This document shows, piece after piece, positions 2,578 through 24,067 of a DNA stretch of 61,028 nucleotides. The stretch is from a virus (lineage: Duplodnaviria > Caudoviricetes): IMG/VR virus record IMGVR_UViG_3300036774_000039, positions 1 through 61,028 of that record; one strand, written 5' to 3'. The notes beneath the pieces were generated by a model. The model did no database searches. It was not told where the DNA came from and was given only the letters and a program-made list of their open reading frames with translations. Numbering within the stretch: the stretch's first letter is position 1; each line of letters starts with the position of its first letter. The position numbers were made by a program, and so were the translations under genes.

Positions 2578-2606
2578 TTGACAAGCGCCTTCGGATATGC
2601 TATATT
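2578..2606 (+). promoter_or_regulatory. Rightward sigma70-type promoter of the early arm
   Basis: TTGACA (2578-2583), 17 nt spacer, TATATT (2601-2606), with an extended -10 TG. Confidence 0.8.
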
Positions 2607-2645
2607 GTGTGCGTTCAAAGGCACACAAACAATCAGAAGGAAGCC

Positions 2646-2870
2646 ATGCCGAGGAAACCCATTCCCCAGAAAGACCCGAACAGGCTCAGAACGCATCGCG
2701 TACCGGTTCACTTCAATGACGCGGAGCTCTCCCTCCTGGACAAACTCGTCCACCGCTACCACAAGGCAACGATCAACCAACTCCTCACGACACCGCTCGT
2801 CGACCGCTCCAGCCTGATCCGCTACATGGTCGTGAAGGCGGCGCTGGCCCTGCCGAAGGAGGGGAAGTGA
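2646..2870 (+). CDS. Small regulator, ribbon-helix-helix-like
   Basis: First gene after the promoter. RTHRVPVHFNDAELSLLD...RSSLIRYMV resembles an RHH strand-helix-helix pattern. Confidence 0.55.
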   Translation: MPRKPIPQKDPNRLRTHRVPVHFNDAELSLLDKLVHRYHKATINQLLTTPLVDRSSLIRYMVVKAALALPKEGK

Positions 2871-19358: not shown

Positions 19359-19609
19359 AATGTAAGTATTGCCCCCAGGAGATCGACTGGAAGCCCACGG
19401 TACGAGGGAAGAATATGTGTGTCGAGGCCCATCCCTACATCCGAGACGGATCAGAACCGCCCCGCAAAGGGACGTACATCGACGAGACTGGCGTGACGTA
19501 TCGGGAGACGCAAGTCCCCTGCAAGGTAAACGTCTGGCGCTGCCACTGGTCCGACTGTCCCGGTTCTGAGGAGGCGAGGAAGCAAAAAGCCCCGCCGAAG
19601 CGGGGCTAG
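19355..19609 (+). CDS. Small zinc-binding protein
   Basis: CKYC..IDW...CHWSDCP. Confidence 0.7.
   Translation: MKCKYCPQEIDWKPTVRGKNMCVEAHPYIRDGSEPPRKGTYIDETGVTYRETQVPCKVNVWRCHWSDCPGSEEARKQKAPPKRG
19584..19607 (-). terminator. Intrinsic terminator of the leftward operon
   Basis: Minus strand AGCCCCGC-TTCG-GCGGGGCT-TTTT. Confidence 0.8.
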
Positions 19610-19700
19610 TTAAACAGCCTATGTAGGAGTCGGAGGAGAATCAGGAGCCCTGCGAGTAGTGCAACCCAGACTACTGCAGGGCTCCGGCGCTTTCGTCGCC

Positions 19701-19955
19701 TCAATCGGCCTCCAGGGTAAAAGATTCCAGAGGATCGGTCATTTCATCGCCATTGATGAAAGCCTCGACTGAGACATTCCCTCGATCATCCTTCAGGATA
19801 TAGATAACGAAGTCCCCCGCTTCGATCCAACATGAGGTCCCGTTGAGGATGAAGTCGCTCCCCGAGTCGTTGTCGGCCTCTTCGAGAACCGGCAGGTCTG
19901 CAGTATGCCGTAGCATCGTCATTCTCCTTTCGCTTTGGTGTGTGTGTGGATTCAT
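19701..19955 (-). CDS. Acidic hypothetical protein (start may be 19923)
   Basis: Last gene of the leftward operon; AAGGAG precedes the internal ATG. Confidence 0.65.
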   Translation of the reverse strand: MNPHTHQSERRMTMLRHTADLPVLEEADNDSGSDFILNGTSCWIEAGDFVIYILKDDRGNVSVEAFINGDEMTDPLESFTLEAD

Positions 19956-19964
19956 AGCCTCCTC

Positions 19965-20408
19965 CTACCTTGATTTGTAAAGAGCCCGAACGGATTTGTA
20001 CTGCCTCTCAGCGCCACCGCCCCCTGAAGAGTCCCGGCGAGCTATCTCCAGGTGGATGGGCATCCACCCCGTCGACTTGCCGACGATAAACCGCCGCGTC
20101 TCCCCGTATGTTGTCACAACCTCAACCCTCCACCCTTCCAGGCTGACTAGATAGGGGGAGAGGCCGACCGCACTCCTCCACCCCGTCTCGACGTTCTTTT
20201 GCCTCCCGAAAACGTGCAAGTCCTCATTGAAGTTATACGCCTTCATCGTCCCCTTGCGGATTCCCCGAGGGATTGGTTTCCCGAGCTCGGCAGCGAGCCC
20301 CCGCATTTCTCTGTCCAGATTATCGAAGCCATAGCAGGACCACCCCGAGCCGGTCGGAATCACGAAGAGTCGATCCTTTCGGTTTATCTTCACGCCGTTG
20401 TTTTTCAT
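19965..20408 (-). CDS. Phage hypothetical protein
   Basis: ATGA-coupled; LEGWRVEV...RRFIVGKSTGWMPIHLEI...SSGG. Confidence 0.75.
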   Translation of the reverse strand: MKNNGVKINRKDRLFVIPTGSGWSCYGFDNLDREMRGLAAELGKPIPRGIRKGTMKAYNFNEDLHVFGRQKNVETGWRSAVGLSPYLVSLEGWRVEVVTTYGETRRFIVGKSTGWMPIHLEIARRDSSGGGGAERQYKSVRALYKSR

Positions 20409-20650
20409 ATCATCCCCGCAAGACAAAGAACGCTGGCGACCGAATGCGTCCCGCAAGCCTCACAGAGACCCCGAGACTGATCGGGCTCGACTTCCTGGGT
20501 ATAGTCACAGTCAGGGTTGATGCAGATACCGAGTACCACCGAGTCGAATACCGCCGCCTCGATTAACTCGTCTCGGGTTTGCCCCTCTATCTCCGCGAGT
20601 CGTTCGAGTTTCGACTGTTCCAGAGTGAAGACACCGCAGACGTTGAACAT
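20405..20650 (-). CDS. Small zinc-finger protein
   Basis: GGAGGT RBS; GICINPDC..EVEPDQ..CEACG..SVLCLAGMI. Confidence 0.75.
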   Translation of the reverse strand: MFNVCGVFTLEQSKLERLAEIEGQTRDELIEAAVFDSVVLGICINPDCDYTQEVEPDQSRGLCEACGTHSVASVLCLAGMI

Positions 20651-20669
20651 ATTACCTCCCGTAATTATG

Positions 20670-20728
20670 AGCCTCATCAGTACCGGCATCTACCGGCAGA
20701 CCGGAGCCCCGAGGCCCCGGTTTCGGCT
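20670..20728 (-). ncRNA. Hammerhead ribozyme, type II (HHR-B)
   Basis: Minus strand AGCC-GAA-ACCGGGGCC(TCGG)GGCTCCGGT-C^TGCCGG(TAGATG)CCGGTA-CTGATGA-GGCT. Full core and all three stems; predicted cut at 20699/20698. Confidence 0.92.
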
Positions 20729-20904
20729 TAGGGCCGTATGTAGGCGTTGACACCGACCGTAACGGGTTTACCGTTGATTTGCGCGGTTGTCTCCTGGTTC
20801 CCATGACTGGAAGCCACGACGAGGGTTTTCCTCGAGGCGCTCGGCGCTGGGCTCTGCAGGTCCAGAACGATTGTCAGGCGCTTTCCATCGCTTGTAACAG
20901 TCAT
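20728..20904 (-). CDS. 58-aa protein bracketed by two hammerheads
   Basis: GGAGGT RBS; MTVTSDGKRLTIVLDL...SASRKTLVVASSHGN...VGVNAY. Confidence 0.8.
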   Translation of the reverse strand: MTVTSDGKRLTIVLDLQSPAPSASRKTLVVASSHGNQETTAQINGKPVTVGVNAYIRP

Positions 20905-20926
20905 AACTACCTCCCTTGTGTGTGTG

Positions 20927-20982
20927 AGTCTCATCAGTCCAAGCGTTCACTTGGAGACGGGGCAGAGCGCCCCGTTTCGACT
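20927..20982 (-). ncRNA. Hammerhead ribozyme, type II (HHR-A)
   Basis: Minus strand AGTC-GAA-ACGGGGC(GCTCT)GCCCCGT-C^TCCAAG(TGAACG)CTTGGA-CTGATGA-GACT. Predicted cut at 20956/20955. Confidence 0.92.
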
Positions 20983-21414
20983 TTATGCCTCTAGCAATTC
21001 GAGACGATGATCCACCCGAGGAAGACGAGCCCCAGGAAGAGTGCGAAAGACAGAAAGCCTAGTATTTCCTTTCGAGTGAGCGGTTCCACGGTGCCTCCTT
21101 TCAATCGGGATGTCTTTTGTCCACCCAGCATCGACGCAGAAAAGTAAAATCCAGTCAGCCACAAGGGAGCGCCTCCCGTCCCGTAACGAGCGAACAACCG
21201 CCAAATGACCCCCAGCCATACGGCCTAGAAACCCCTCGCGGTTCGTCCACGCCTCGACGATCCACGGTTCCCTGAATATCGCTGGCCCCCGGAAGCCTCC
21301 GAGCGGGCGTATTCCGTCCTGAATATAGACCACCTCACCGACCGGCACAGTCCCGCGCCGGTGAGGGGAGCCCGCAGCAAACCTCTGGGCGTAATATTGG
21401 TGTATCATATCCAC
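20983..21414 (-). CDS. Hypothetical protein
   Basis: Coupled to the upstream gene; PWIVEAW...GGHLAVVRSLRDGR. The 3' third overlaps the 32-aa peptide ORF. Confidence 0.6.
   Translation of the reverse strand: MDMIHQYYAQRFAAGSPHRRGTVPVGEVVYIQDGIRPLGGFRGPAIFREPWIVEAWTNREGFLGRMAGGHLAVVRSLRDGRRSLVADWILLFCVDAGWTKDIPIERRHRGTAHSKGNTRLSVFRTLPGARLPRVDHRLELLEA
20991..21089 (-). CDS. 32-aa membrane peptide
   Basis: AAAGGAGG before GTG 21089; MEPLTRKEILGFLSFALFLGLVFLGWIIVSNC. Confidence 0.55.
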   Translation of the reverse strand: MEPLTRKEILGFLSFALFLGLVFLGWIIVSNC

Positions 21415-21827
21415 GCCTGACGGAGTGCATACCCACCGTCCGAGTGCCGGCGACGCCGGTAGTCTGTCCCGTTGCTGTGGTCATTCGAGGGGCAGGAAGA
21501 GTGACGCGATCCATCACCGCGACCGGTGCAAATATGACCCTTAGGGAACATCCTGTAGGCAAGGTGATAAACGAGCTCGAAACCCATATCCGAGCCACAA
21601 CCGTGGATTACGATCCCATCCCCCTTGCAAATGTACCCGAGAACCCGCGAGGCATACCCCGAGAGATAGAGCGGGCCATCTGCGGTGAGTTTGTAAAGGT
21701 CGATCCTCCGAGACATCCCCGAGGCCGAGACGTGACGCAGTACCGTGTATACCGTATCGCCCGGTTTTAGGAACTTGTGGAGCATTTCCAGGGCGTGTGC
21801 GGTTTCCTCTTTCGTGGATCGTGGCAT
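21405..21827 (-). CDS. Phage hypothetical protein
   Basis: AGGAGGT RBS; LKPGDTVYTVLRHVSASGMSRRI...GCGSDMGFELVY. Confidence 0.75.
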   Translation of the reverse strand: MPRSTKEETAHALEMLHKFLKPGDTVYTVLRHVSASGMSRRIDLYKLTADGPLYLSGYASRVLGYICKGDGIVIHGCGSDMGFELVYHLAYRMFPKGHICTGRGDGSRHSSCPSNDHSNGTDYRRRRHSDGGYALRQAWI

Positions 21828-21835
21828 ATTACCTC

Positions 21836-22246
21836 CTATTGGTTAGAATATTTCGGATCGGTGGTAAGATGAAAAGTCTGTTTACGGTAACTCTCCAGCA
21901 TCCAAAGGCAACGCTTAACCGCCTCGCTCGCCTTATCGGTTTGAAAAAGTAGTGTGACGCTGTGGGAGGTGTCGGGGTCGATTTCAAAATTGATGCAGAA
22001 GCGCGGGAACGTCTCCCCCATTTCACGTTGATAGGCGTTCGGATGCTCGACCCACAGAGTCAGGACTGCAGAGTGCGCGGGGTCTGAAAACGTGGGAACG
22101 CTCGCCGAGAAACTCGGACAGGCGTTATTGTGCCAAGATTCGTCCTGCAGGACTCCATCAGAGACGAGACGGAGAATTGAGGAGGGAACGCGGTACGCTT
22201 TCCCGAATTCGCGTACCCAGAGAGGTTCAACAGTTCCGGTTGTCAT
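21836..22246 (-). CDS. Hypothetical protein (SWHNNACPSF motif)
   Basis: ATGA-coupled; DESWHNNACPSF...LWVEH...RE...RF. Confidence 0.7.
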   Translation of the reverse strand: MTTGTVEPLWVREFGKAYRVPSSILRLVSDGVLQDESWHNNACPSFSASVPTFSDPAHSAVLTLWVEHPNAYQREMGETFPRFCINFEIDPDTSHSVTLLFQTDKASEAVKRCLWMLESYRKQTFHLTTDPKYSNQ

Positions 22247-22533
22247 ACGCGCCCCCCGTCTTCGTCGGAATCGCTGAGGATCAGCACCGCGCCATTTTCG
22301 CACGTTGTAGGAAGGCCGAACGCGGGGGAGGAGGAGAAGAAAGAGAACGCGCCCCCGTCCGTCTCGACATAGACTGTTCCGTCTAACCGCTCCGCGATTT
22401 CATCGAAGGTACGGAGCCACCGCGAGACCGTGAGAACGTCTACAGGTTCCAGTCCCGAGGGATCGCCGTTGATAAGGTACGGAAGCGCCCATTCAGGGAT
22501 GTTGAGATCGTCGAAGCGCTGAGAGATTTTCAC
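22243..22533 (-). CDS. Phage hypothetical protein
   Basis: GTG start after AAAGGG; IPEWALPYLINGDPSGLE...FSSSPAFGLPTTC. Confidence 0.7.
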   Translation of the reverse strand: MKISQRFDDLNIPEWALPYLINGDPSGLEPVDVLTVSRWLRTFDEIAERLDGTVYVETDGGAFSFFSSSPAFGLPTTCENGAVLILSDSDEDGGRV

Positions 22534-22567
22534 CGTGAAGCCCTTTCTTGTTGTGGTTGAGGTTGAG

Positions 22568-22610
22568 GAGGGAGGAGGGGAGTCGAACCCCTCAGAGACC
22601 ACGCTCCCCC
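22568..22610 (-). ncRNA. tRNA-like minihelix (acceptor stem plus T-arm only)
   Basis: Intergenic; minus strand GGGGGAG-CGTGGTCTCT-GAGGGG-TTCGACT-CCCCTC-CTCCCTC. Confidence 0.55.
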
Positions 22611-22615
22611 GAGAA

Positions 22616-22954
22616 TCAATTAGCGCTGCAAGGAGTCCCGCGTTCCTGCGCTTCAATCGCCCGAACACGCTGAAGAACTTCGGCCTTAAATTCCTGTTTC
22701 TTGTACGCCAATTCGTGCGCGACGTTGACCGGAGCATGATAATTGACCCTGACATATACGGCAACGCGCCGAGCATCAGCGAGACGGAGAGAACCGCCCC
22801 AGCCGTAGGACTTCCCCGCCTTGGGTTTCCGTCCCTTGAAATCCAGATGGACAGTACGCTTAGAATTGTGGTTGACGATCCACCGAAGAAGACGAGCGAC
22901 CGGAAGGGGATAGACCCCGAGGCAATAGGCCGACCAATCACGAGAATGTGTCAT
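22616..22954 (-). CDS. Basic hypothetical protein
   Basis: GGAGGA RBS; contains VAHELAY, a near-HExxH motif. Confidence 0.65.
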   Translation of the reverse strand: MTHSRDWSAYCLGVYPLPVARLLRWIVNHNSKRTVHLDFKGRKPKAGKSYGWGGSLRLADARRVAVYVRVNYHAPVNVAHELAYKKQEFKAEVLQRVRAIEAQERGTPCSAN

Positions 22955-22956
22955 TG

Positions 22957-23134
22957 TTATTCCTCCACGGTTAGAGTATAAGAGCCCACCTTGTTTCCGT
23001 TGCTATCAACAATCTTTCCCCGAGGTTTGGCCCTCGGAGACTTTCACCGCGACAATGTGGAGAAGATGCGCGACCTCGGAGAACGGCTCAGGCTGGAACG
23101 CATCATTGTCAATCTTGAACGCGAGTGTGAACAT
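22957..23134 (-). CDS. First gene of the leftward operon, interrupted by a 1-nt frame change
   Basis: Frame 0 gives MFTLAFKIDNDAF...TSGK then stops at 23006. The +1 frame continues IVDSNGNKVGSYTLTVEE to a stop abutting the next gene. Confidence 0.6.
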
Positions 23135-23174
23135 ATAACCCTCCCTGTGGTTGTGTGCTTCCTTGTGTGCCTGT

Positions 23175-23203
23175 AATATATAGGGAGGTATGCCCGTTGT
23201 CAA
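23175..23203 (-). promoter_or_regulatory. Sigma70-type promoter of the leftward operon
   Basis: Minus strand TTGACA-17 nt-TATATT in the CCTATTGACAA context. Confidence 0.8.
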
Positions 23204-23398: not shown

Positions 23399-24067
23399 AT
23401 GGACGCCAAGAATCCACCCCTTGAAAACCCCGAGAAACCCCCCCGAGCTCTCCCCTACGCTCTGCCCTTAGAAGCCCCCGACAAATCAGGAAAGGGAAAA
23501 AAAGGAGGGAGACCTCGGAACCTCCTCCCCGAAGCGCCAGATGTCCGAACACTTGAACGCTACGCCTCTGCAGGATTAAGCGAAGAGCAACTGTGTTATA
23601 TGCTGGACATCGACAAGAAAACCCTGCAACGGTGGAAGAGGTTAGCGAGTGTCAAGAAGGCCCTTCGAGAAGGGAAGGCTAACGCGGTGACACACGTCGA
23701 GTCAAGCCTGTATTTATGCTGTGTTGGCTACTGGCACGAGGGGCAACGCATAGACCGCGCCGGGAATGTTGTCAGCATTAAGCAATACGAGCCCCCAGAC
23801 GTTCCCGCCATTCAGTTTTACCTTGCAAACCGCGACCCTGAAAACTGGAAACTGAAGACGAGCCTTGAAGCCTCGGGCACGTCCCGCGTTGAATTCGTGG
23901 GCATCCCCGAGGGACACAAGGAACGAAAGGCCCTTGCAGACGAGATCCGCAAGCGCCTTCTGCAGAACGCTGGGACGGACGGGGCTTCCTTGGCTCTGGA
24001 CGGTGGACGAATAGCACCGGCAGAAGGGGCGAAAATGGGCCCGAACGGGGAAGAGGTGAAAGAGTGA
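23399..24067 (+). CDS. Putative terminase small subunit (HTH)
   Basis: GGRP...GLSEEQLCYMLDIDKKTLQRW...ALREGK...VESSLY...PPDVPAIQFYLANRDPENW. Confidence 0.75.
   Translation: MDAKNPPLENPEKPPRALPYALPLEAPDKSGKGKKGGRPRNLLPEAPDVRTLERYASAGLSEEQLCYMLDIDKKTLQRWKRLASVKKALREGKANAVTHVESSLYLCCVGYWHEGQRIDRAGNVVSIKQYEPPDVPAIQFYLANRDPENWKLKTSLEASGTSRVEFVGIPEGHKERKALADEIRKRLLQNAGTDGASLALDGGRIAPAEGAKMGPNGEEVKE

Follow-up and report, generated by a model that had tools for sequence, protein, structure and literature searches.

The window analyzed here is the whole IMG/VR virus record IMGVR_UViG_3300036774_000039 (61,028 base pairs (bp); Duplodnaviria, Caudoviricetes), and this report concerns its minus-strand unit, an operon of ten small genes (designated A to J in the order of transcription) with two hammerhead ribozyme motifs around gene G and a tRNA-like minihelix between genes B and C. 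The RNA transcribed from the single promoter of this operon probably cuts itself at the two hammerheads, which are of a compact type II form, and the minihelix would provide a third, enzyme-dependent break or a protected end. The initial annotation of this DNA had proposed a self-segmenting transcript. This proposal is well supported by computation, namely by canonical hammerheads and by a large covarying family that occupies the same slot in many phage contigs.

Two hammerheads around gene G and their viral relatives

Both hammerheads named in the initial annotation were recovered (Table 1). According to a permissive Rfam scan, which gave nothing else noteworthy in the window, they match Hammerhead_II (RF02276) at 20982..20916 with 31.4 bits and at 20728..20666 with 28.7 bits. 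Each possesses the canonical core, comprising CUGAUGA, GAAA, the A15.1-U16.1 pair and the GUC cleavage triplet. Stem III (7 and 9 bp) and stem I (7 bp in each) are closed, and stem II is open with 4 bp. The bare core pattern is not rare in the window (3 matches versus 0.68 expected); the core together with a three-helix descriptor selects exactly these two hammerheads, and the same descriptor applied to 100 dinucleotide shuffles of the window yielded one type III motif and none of type I or type II. The two copies are spaced by 254 nucleotides (nt) and bracket gene G, an arrangement of at least two hammerheads on one strand flanking a single gene in phage DNA, here in that of a complete virus. 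The stem II strand of hammerhead 1 begins directly after the stop codon of gene F, and the first three positions of hammerhead 2 are the stop codon UAA of gene G.

In the proposed mechanism, the host RNA polymerase would transcribe the operon leftward from one strong sigma-70 promoter, and the polycistronic RNA would cleave itself on either side of gene G, at the boundaries with genes F and H, each cut lying between stems III and I, as in type II hammerheads. Since stems I and III are closed and the 4-bp stem II is open, the GC-rich stem III hairpin, carrying a 2',3'-cyclic phosphate, would form the end of the upstream piece. The downstream piece would open with the stem I hairpin bearing a 5'-hydroxyl, and after this hairpin would come an unstructured leader rich in A and C and a strong ribosome-binding site; the new ends of the predicted products thus retain hairpins. 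The pieces should separate, because only the 4 bp of stem II (3–4 bp family-wide) join them. Gene G would be freed as a monocistronic RNA (the fragment predicted between the cuts has about 257 nt) and genes H to J would form a separate message, so that stability and translation might differ between the pieces. As the stop codon lies in or beside the 5' strand of stem II, the ribozyme could fold only once the ribosome that terminates there has cleared the site, which suggests that this ribosome delays ribozyme folding.

Relatives of the two hammerheads were sought in viral contigs with a search pattern derived from the window copies, in which pairing was not required; the loci are denoted by L numbers. 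The pattern matched at least 120 viral stretches. All three stems are present in 102 of the 142 matches listed, and stem II usually has 3–4 contiguous pairs. An alignment was made of the two window copies and 25 viral sequences pre-filtered for pairing. In these 27 sequences, each of the 14 modelled pairs is 100% paired, with double changes at 10 of them; the score for covariation was 0.81, versus 0.17 for shuffled and at most 0.10 for slid alignments. Because the aligned sequences were pre-filtered, the independent evidence for pairing is the proportion of 102 of 142. The covariance model built from the alignment detects only the two known sites in the window (both are in its seed), and 171 and 32 sites across the 121 loci searched. 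The compact type II form is abundant in viral contigs. In seven loci its copies score 27.7–36 bits with Rfam, which is also below the threshold. The Rfam cut-off therefore misses a common form, and phage annotation under-counts such ribozymes.

With a looser descriptor, at least two hammerheads were found in 30 of the 121 loci, in all 30 on a single strand, with a median spacing of 389 nt (quartiles 283–637). A single hammerhead was found in 75 of the 121 loci with the descriptor, many of these loci being short or cut at contig ends. According to the covariance model, one operon contains up to 11 hammerheads (L029, 172-5158, minus strand, 11 in 5 kb). Other dense arrays were seen in L061 (2149-5078, plus strand, 9 in 3 kb, covariance model) and in L120 (10, descriptor). 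Such arrays bracket nearly every small gene, far beyond the triple arrangements that are described in the relevant part of PMC3088659.

The exact bracketing of gene G by two cuts would also suit excision of its segment followed by circularisation by a host RtcB-type ligase, that is, circularisation or splicing instead of simple segmentation. Hammerhead product ends (5'-OH and 2',3'-cyclic phosphate) suit ligases of this type. A role of tRNA ligase has been described for viroids (PMC6765202, as far as the available text goes). Nevertheless, we regard this explanation as highly improbable. Perreault et al. report that circular or spliced products of clustered hammerheads were sought and none found (PMC3088659, in the accessible part). 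In addition, only 3 of 4 positions pair in the chimeric stem II of a circle, and most loci (the 75 of 121 above, with the same limit of short and cut contigs) contain a single hammerhead.

The surroundings of the ribozymes were compared between 104 validated hammerheads (the 102 from loci, among the matches listed, and the two in the window) and 2080 random positions from the same loci. The stop codon of an upstream open reading frame (ORF) of at least 40 codons ends 0–8 nt before CGAAAC in 79 of the 104, versus 129 of the 2080 random positions. A Shine-Dalgarno sequence and a start codon are found within 90 nt downstream in 88 of the 104 hammerheads, versus 499 of the 2080, with a mode of 20–35 nt. 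The leaders after hammerheads contain 40% A and 22% C. The hammerheads of the operon fit this scheme, with stops 3 and 2 nt upstream and starts 25 and 22 nt downstream. The succession of stop codon, ribozyme, A-rich leader and start codon forms a stereotyped cassette, and since the stop at stem II, the hairpin ends and the A-rich leader recur in it, the hypothesis of differential stability or translation is directly testable.

The genes after hammerheads are small (median 95 amino acids (aa), n=147). In a Pfam scan of 144 such genes, the largest family was DUF932 with five members, followed by DUF7168, DUF2786, phi29-type SSB and AAA_5 with two each and by ArdA, DUF6926, GemA, Bro-N and HU with one each. 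The genes flanked by hammerheads are thus small and not conserved between instances.

Outside the core, hammerhead alignments A1 and A2 show 91% conservation of an A located two positions 5' of stem II; this A is often the middle base of the upstream UAG or UAA stop codon. In alignment A1, the first nucleotide of loop I is invariantly U, with an A two positions later. Both window copies have the loop I U and the A 5' of stem II that are conserved in the compact family. These bases may form a tertiary contact specific to compact type II.

A tRNA-like minihelix between genes B and C

The tRNA-like minihelix reported in the initial annotation was also found with RNAfold in the 82-nt gap between genes B and C, where it lies 5 nt past the gene B stop and 34 nt ahead of the gene C start. 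It consists of a 7-bp acceptor stem (one G-U pair), a 10-nt linker containing GG, a 6-bp T stem and a UUCGACU T-loop. The acceptor stacks on the T arm, and the linker replaces the D arm, the anticodon arm and the variable region. A descriptor of this structure has one match in the window, versus a mean of 0.01 in shuffled sequences (2 of 200 shuffles had a match). The element is not a tRNA gene by the cloverleaf criterion; ARAGORN detected none here, and no Rfam tRNA match was obtained at E<=10. It does have the features of a minihelix substrate of RNase P, namely an acceptor continuous with the T stem and a UUCRANY loop. Acceptor/T-arm hairpins are described as efficient, classic RNase P substrates, and some polycistronic operon mRNAs and phage RNAs as cut by RNase P, in the available text of PMC11143913.

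T-arms were surveyed in 1.58 Mb of phage-like DNA, the loci with minihelices being partly related and chosen for carrying hammerheads. Twenty T-arms were inside tRNAs predicted by ARAGORN, and 34 were isolated, versus 3–6 per shuffle. A fully paired (7/7) acceptor within 30 nt was present in 9 of the 34 isolated T-arms and in 0 of 24 from shuffles; for 6/7 acceptors, the proportions were 12 of 34 and 7 of 24. Pairing was counted per sequence by a script, and MAFFT gave no single register. The nine 7/7 minihelices represent four sequence families: the window; L188; L004/L010/L075; and L013/L021/L028/L069. The last family is less clean, with a terminator-like hairpin ahead of the minihelix.

All nine minihelices lie on the coding strand in the gap that separates one gene from the following one; the preceding stop codon is 0–7 nt upstream or overlaps the first acceptor base, and the following start codon is 25–47 nt downstream. 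In L010, L075, L004 and the L013 group, they lie 200–1350 nt downstream of hammerheads on the same strand; the order in L010 is gene, hammerhead, gene, hammerhead, gene, gene, minihelix, gene. The real tRNA genes in the gut-phage minihelix loci are on the opposite strand. The L188 minihelix immediately precedes a gene I homologue, and the leader after it resembles that of the window.

Every linker examined (window 22603-22594; L188; L156; L004/L010/L075; L013/L021/L045) contained, by eye, a YGGY-like GG, which could mimic the contact of D-loop G18-G19 with the T-loop. A trailer resembling UYAAC(C) or UUACC was seen by eye 1–4 nt after several minihelices. Minihelix-like elements with a 6/7 acceptor were additionally noted beside real tRNA arrays of gut-phage contigs, on the tRNA strand, in L013 (9957-10004, plus strand), in its L045/L069 homologues and in L004 (7180-7224, plus strand).

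The minihelix is most likely a site for a host tRNA-processing nuclease, with a 5' or 3' cut. Occupying the same kind of slot as the hammerheads, it would be processed by RNase P at its 5' side and/or by a 3' tRNA-end nuclease. Phage accessory operons may, tentatively, use two interchangeable punctuations in the same stop-to-start slot: an autonomous compact type II hammerhead, and an acceptor/T-arm minihelix of 43–60 nt that borrows host nucleases. The window transcript carries both kinds, and such a system would correspond, among viruses of the bacterial world, to the tRNA punctuation of mitochondria. No description of acceptor/T-arm minihelices as intergenic punctuation in phage operons was found in the literature searched, which did not cover the supplement of PMC3088659.

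Evidence against segmentation and homologous loci

A number of observations on the hammerheads, the minihelix and the homologous loci weigh against segmentation of the operon RNA as proposed above. Neither window hammerhead reaches the RF02276 gathering score of 37, which is a curation threshold and not a biochemical criterion; they fall below it because of their compact form. Neither copy matches the pseudoknot-forming 3' tail of the Rfam type II model, and their stems I and III are shorter. Given the sub-threshold scores and the unmatched tail, activity at cellular magnesium is not assured. Together with a stem II of 4 bp and an RNAfold free-energy minimum of hammerhead 2 that lacks stem II, these features would suit hammerheads that are inactive in vivo, either as relics or as motifs too minimal for cellular magnesium, and that act as mere hairpins buffering translation or stability between cistrons. 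This seems very unlikely, since the perfect cores in both copies and the more than 100 compact relatives with covarying stems point to selection on the catalytic core, and a role as a hairpin only would not require CUGAUGA and GAAA.

RNA structure is also not present in every sizeable gap, as had been claimed in the initial annotation: the 51-nt gap between genes A and B contains none (z +0.78). With respect to the minihelix, the features of an RNase P substrate are incomplete. The acceptor is followed by CUCAACC and there is no 3' RCCA, a motif that aids bacterial RNase P and is not obligatory. Position -1 is C. In L004, L045 and L013b, an RNase P cut would fall within the upstream stop codon. 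Furthermore, the minihelix counts are not independent, because the loci are partly related and were selected via hammerheads.

The lack of RCCA and of an anticodon arm would also fit hammerheads that work beside a minihelix that is not a processing signal at all. The minihelix could then have arisen from a tRNA gene by decay and loss of the D and anticodon arms, or it could be what is left of a tRNA-type attachment site, or a mimic of the tRNA elbow that binds or titrates a host tRNA-binding factor. Genuine tRNA arrays, with more minihelix-like elements next to them, occur in phages of the L013/L069 group, where decay products of tRNAs are therefore plausible. The GG of the linker, judged by eye, suits binding as well as cleavage. 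On the other hand, ARAGORN finds no tRNA genes whatever in the window. An attachment site derived from a 3' fragment would lose the complementary 5' acceptor strand, yet the isolated T-arms show the excess of 7/7 pairing over shuffles reported above. The acceptor pairing survives a change of linker length from 12 nt in L010 to 18 nt in L075. Finally, the minihelices share with the hammerheads both their geometry and their location in stop-to-start gaps of the coding strand. We consider a non-processing origin of the minihelix possible and clearly less probable than processing of the transcript at all three elements.

Homologous loci gave a mixed picture. Viral contigs were scanned with the proteins of gene F, gene I and the small terminase subunit, and one distant locus, L002 (41% identity), was detected; it has no hammerhead. 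A BLASTN search against GenBank phages gave only a 93-nt match, and a protein 90% identical to that of gene I is encoded on an 8.7-kb contig outside the set of loci analyzed. Among 80 metagenome loci with gene I homologues, a hammerhead was present in one (L130), and among 23 viral DUF6926 loci also in one, 1.7 kb downstream. No other ribozyme was found at the Rfam gathering cut-offs in the 17 of 80 gene I loci or the 20 of 23 DUF6926 loci scanned, and no T-arm was found in the 23 DUF6926 loci. The lack of the elements in relatives, named in the initial annotation as grounds for rejecting the idea, was thus observed in part, and only among distant relatives.

The initial annotation had also suggested that ribozyme and tRNA-like spacers may be interchangeable in homologous operons. 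Two cases agree with this. In L006, a hammerhead is located directly upstream of the DUF6926 gene, where the window has the minihelix; for gene I, a minihelix is directly upstream in L188 and a hammerhead one gene upstream in the window and in L130. Most homologue loci do not contain the elements. As the distant homologue loci are mostly without them, the elements appear to follow phage lineages and operon styles rather than gene families. Perreault et al. likewise note, in the accessible part of PMC3088659, that hammerheads are not tied to gene families.

Several further features of these loci were recorded. In L130 (70-1224, plus strand), a gene, a hammerhead (387-443), a small gene and the gene I homologue follow one another; this order is that of hammerhead 2, gene H and gene I in the window, and the small gene appears unrelated to gene H when the translations are read by eye. 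A match to abiF RNA (49.3 bits) was found near the DUF6926 gene of a viral contig (L211, 733-769, minus strand) and is the sole Rfam match in the 20 loci. A group II intron domain is located near a gene I homologue in L148 (6702-6926, plus strand).

Operon features, encoded proteins and known systems

The features of the operon are summarized in Table 1. The single strong promoter and single terminator indicated in the initial annotation were confirmed. Its count of about 11 small genes agrees with the ten ORFs (42–147 aa), all preceded by Shine-Dalgarno sequences, and two tiny candidate ORFs.

Table 1. Minus-strand operon of the window and the adjacent small terminase gene
Feature	Position	Strand	Description
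Minus-strand unit	23203 to 19584	(-)	10 small genes between promoter and terminator
Sigma-70-type promoter	23175..23203	(-)	TTGACA-17-TATATT, matches consensus 11/12
CA-rich 5' leader	23135..23168	(-)	GGGAGGG ribosome-binding site; little structure (-2.7 kcal/mol)
Gene A	23006..23134	(-)	42 aa, no family
Gene B	22616..22954	(-)	112 aa, no family
tRNA-like minihelix	22568..22610	(-)	43 nt, between genes B and C
A/C-rich leader	22534..22567	(-)	CUCAACC repeats; AAAGGG ribosome-binding site
Gene C	22243..22533	(-)	96 aa, GTG start, DUF6926 (E 9.6e-15)
Gene D	21836..22246	(-)	136 aa, no family
Gene E	21405..21827	(-)	140 aa, phrog_12365 (unknown function)
Gene F	20983..21408	(-)	141 aa, no family
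Hammerhead 1, compact type II	20925..20984	(-)	predicted cut after C 20956 (20956/20955)
Gene G	20728..20904	(-)	58 aa, hammerhead on each side; relatives in L078, L049
Hammerhead 2, compact type II	20668..20730	(-)	predicted cut after C 20699
Gene H	20405..20650	(-)	81 aa, Cys-rich, no family above cut-off
Gene I	19965..20408	(-)	147 aa, phrog_10759
Gene J	19701..19955	(-)	84 aa (72 aa if ATG at 19919), CACACACACAC tract at 5' end
Structured 3' untranslated region (UTR)	19608..19700	(-)	short hairpin and ~17-bp hairpin
Intrinsic terminator	19584..19607	(-)	8-bp GC-rich stem and T-run at 19607..19588
Small terminase subunit	23399-24067		diverges from minus-strand unit; PHROGs match

Promoters matching the consensus at 11 of 12 positions occur twice in the entire window, namely the operon promoter and one at +2578. 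The latter (window 2578-2660, plus strand) has the same hexamers and spacing and is followed by the leader CACACAAACAA, CA-rich by eye, and the ribosome-binding site GAAGGAAG; CA-rich leaders may be a general trait of promoter-proximal genes in this phage. Of the CA-rich leaders claimed for several operon genes, those at 23169-23146, 20926-20917 and 19948-19939 were found, and the tract at about 22550 is of CAAC type. CACACA is not enriched in the whole window (24 matches versus 18.4 expected), and 8 of the 24 matches are on the sense strand of the 3.6-kb unit.

The 127-nt tail of the operon, including the terminator, has a folding z of -4.17, and 0 of 200 shuffles were as good. A candidate ORF of 32 aa (19606-19704, minus strand) has a TTG start that overlaps the gene J stop (TTGA) and GGAGG 4 nt upstream; its product has a basic N-terminus followed by a hydrophobic helix, and the ORF coincides with the ~17-bp hairpin of the 3' UTR. 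This region may encode a peptide, be cut by RNase III or stabilise the 3' end. The idea that the hairpin mimics a CRISPR repeat was dropped, as the paper on anti-CRISPR RNA cites hammerheads as an engineering tool only. A second candidate, a hydrophobic ORF of 32 aa (20991-21089, minus strand), has a GTG start and a strong AAGGAGG site 5 nt upstream. It is nested, in a different frame, within the 3' end of gene F, whose final ~45 residues look low-complexity. Gene F may be mis-delimited or may overlap this ORF.

The phage genome has a direct terminal repeat of 123 bp and a GC content of 54.9%, and the record is rated 100% complete. The plus strand carries nearly all long ORFs. Few proteins of the window have PHROGs matches, a DNA methyltransferase being among them, and nothing in the whole window reaches the Rfam gathering thresholds. 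The minus-strand ORF 2074-2436 was considered as a second leftward gene and rejected, since by eye it appears to be the antisense of a plus-strand gene. The phage is lytic-looking and terminally redundant, and the minus-strand unit is probably an accessory operon.

Comparison of the operon proteins with Pfam, PHROGs, NCBIfam and PADLOC gave no assignment beyond DUF6926 and two PHROGs without a known function; NCBIfam, PADLOC and the solved structures contained no match to any operon protein. The DUF6926 protein of gene C has 191 relatives, and the literature searched contained no mention of this domain. Gene I is a member of a widespread family of hypothetical proteins with 528 homologues, and a phmmer search of its protein against PDB gave no match. 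Its AlphaFold model (predicted local distance difference test (pLDDT) 94.6) shows a helical hairpin and a C-terminal small beta-barrel. The Foldseek program found no match to the model at E<=0.001. With VIA-align, the best Z was 5.3, and Sm/Hfq/WYL-like barrels matched residues 85–147 with Z 4.3–4.8, within the noise of the tool.

In L002, the gene I homologue adjoins an ORF judged ArdA-like by eye. This neighbour, the DUF6926 gene and the published case of ardA point, only indirectly, to a possible role of the operon in host take-over or anti-defence. The host-type promoter suggests that the operon may be transcribed early.

Phage hammerheads in such positions are already a known kind of arrangement, described since 2011. 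In the accessible parts of the respective papers, clustered prophage hammerheads flank single genes including ardA and cleave in vitro and in vivo (PMC3088659); phage hammerheads are proposed to cut long transcripts into gene-length mRNAs of differing stability or translation (PMC3088659; PMC6765202); and hammerheads in phage DNA flank small non-conserved ORFs (PMC6155905). The role of hammerheads in bacteria and phages is called open in both reviews (PMC6155905; PMC6765202). The observation made in the initial annotation is essentially right, and its interpretation coincides with this existing, still unproven hypothesis. The window adds a clean example from a complete genome, in which the operon has a single promoter and a single terminator. 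The minihelix spacer is less familiar and of modest novelty; it is plausible as a host-nuclease-dependent alternative to hammerheads. If minihelices are indeed cut by RNase P or 3' tRNA-end nucleases, phages gain a second, host-dependent way of operon segmentation.

The clusters of Perreault et al. 2011, as presented in the accessible part of PMC3088659, share with the window several hammerheads on one strand, small non-conserved genes and the proposed transcript processing, as well as neighbours of anti-restriction type (ardA there, DUF6926 here). They differ in that the window represents the complete genome of a free phage, with repeats at its termini, in which the hammerheads are of a compact type II form below the Rfam cut-off and are accompanied by a minihelix; cleavage is predicted here, whereas it was demonstrated there. 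Rfam Hammerhead_II (RF02276) has the same core, open-stem-II topology and GUC site as the window copies, which differ by their scores (31.4 and 28.7 bits, threshold 37), the lack of the consensus 3' tail and shorter stems I and III. In synthetic insulators such as RiboJ, a self-cleaving ribozyme upstream of the ribosome-binding site gives a defined 5'-OH and a hairpin-capped leader; these are engineered, whereas the arrangement in the window is natural.

For the minihelix, the model substrates of RNase P in the available text of PMC11143913 are the closest in structure, as an acceptor stacked on a T stem-loop suffices there. Unlike them, the window minihelix has a 10-nt bulge on the 5' side, no RCCA and C at -1. 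In mitochondrial tRNA punctuation and plant t-elements (PMC1920247, as far as the available text goes), tRNA-like structures between coding regions likewise let tRNA nucleases define mRNA ends. Those systems are organellar, whereas the window offers a 43-nt minihelix in a phage operon that would be processed in a similar way.

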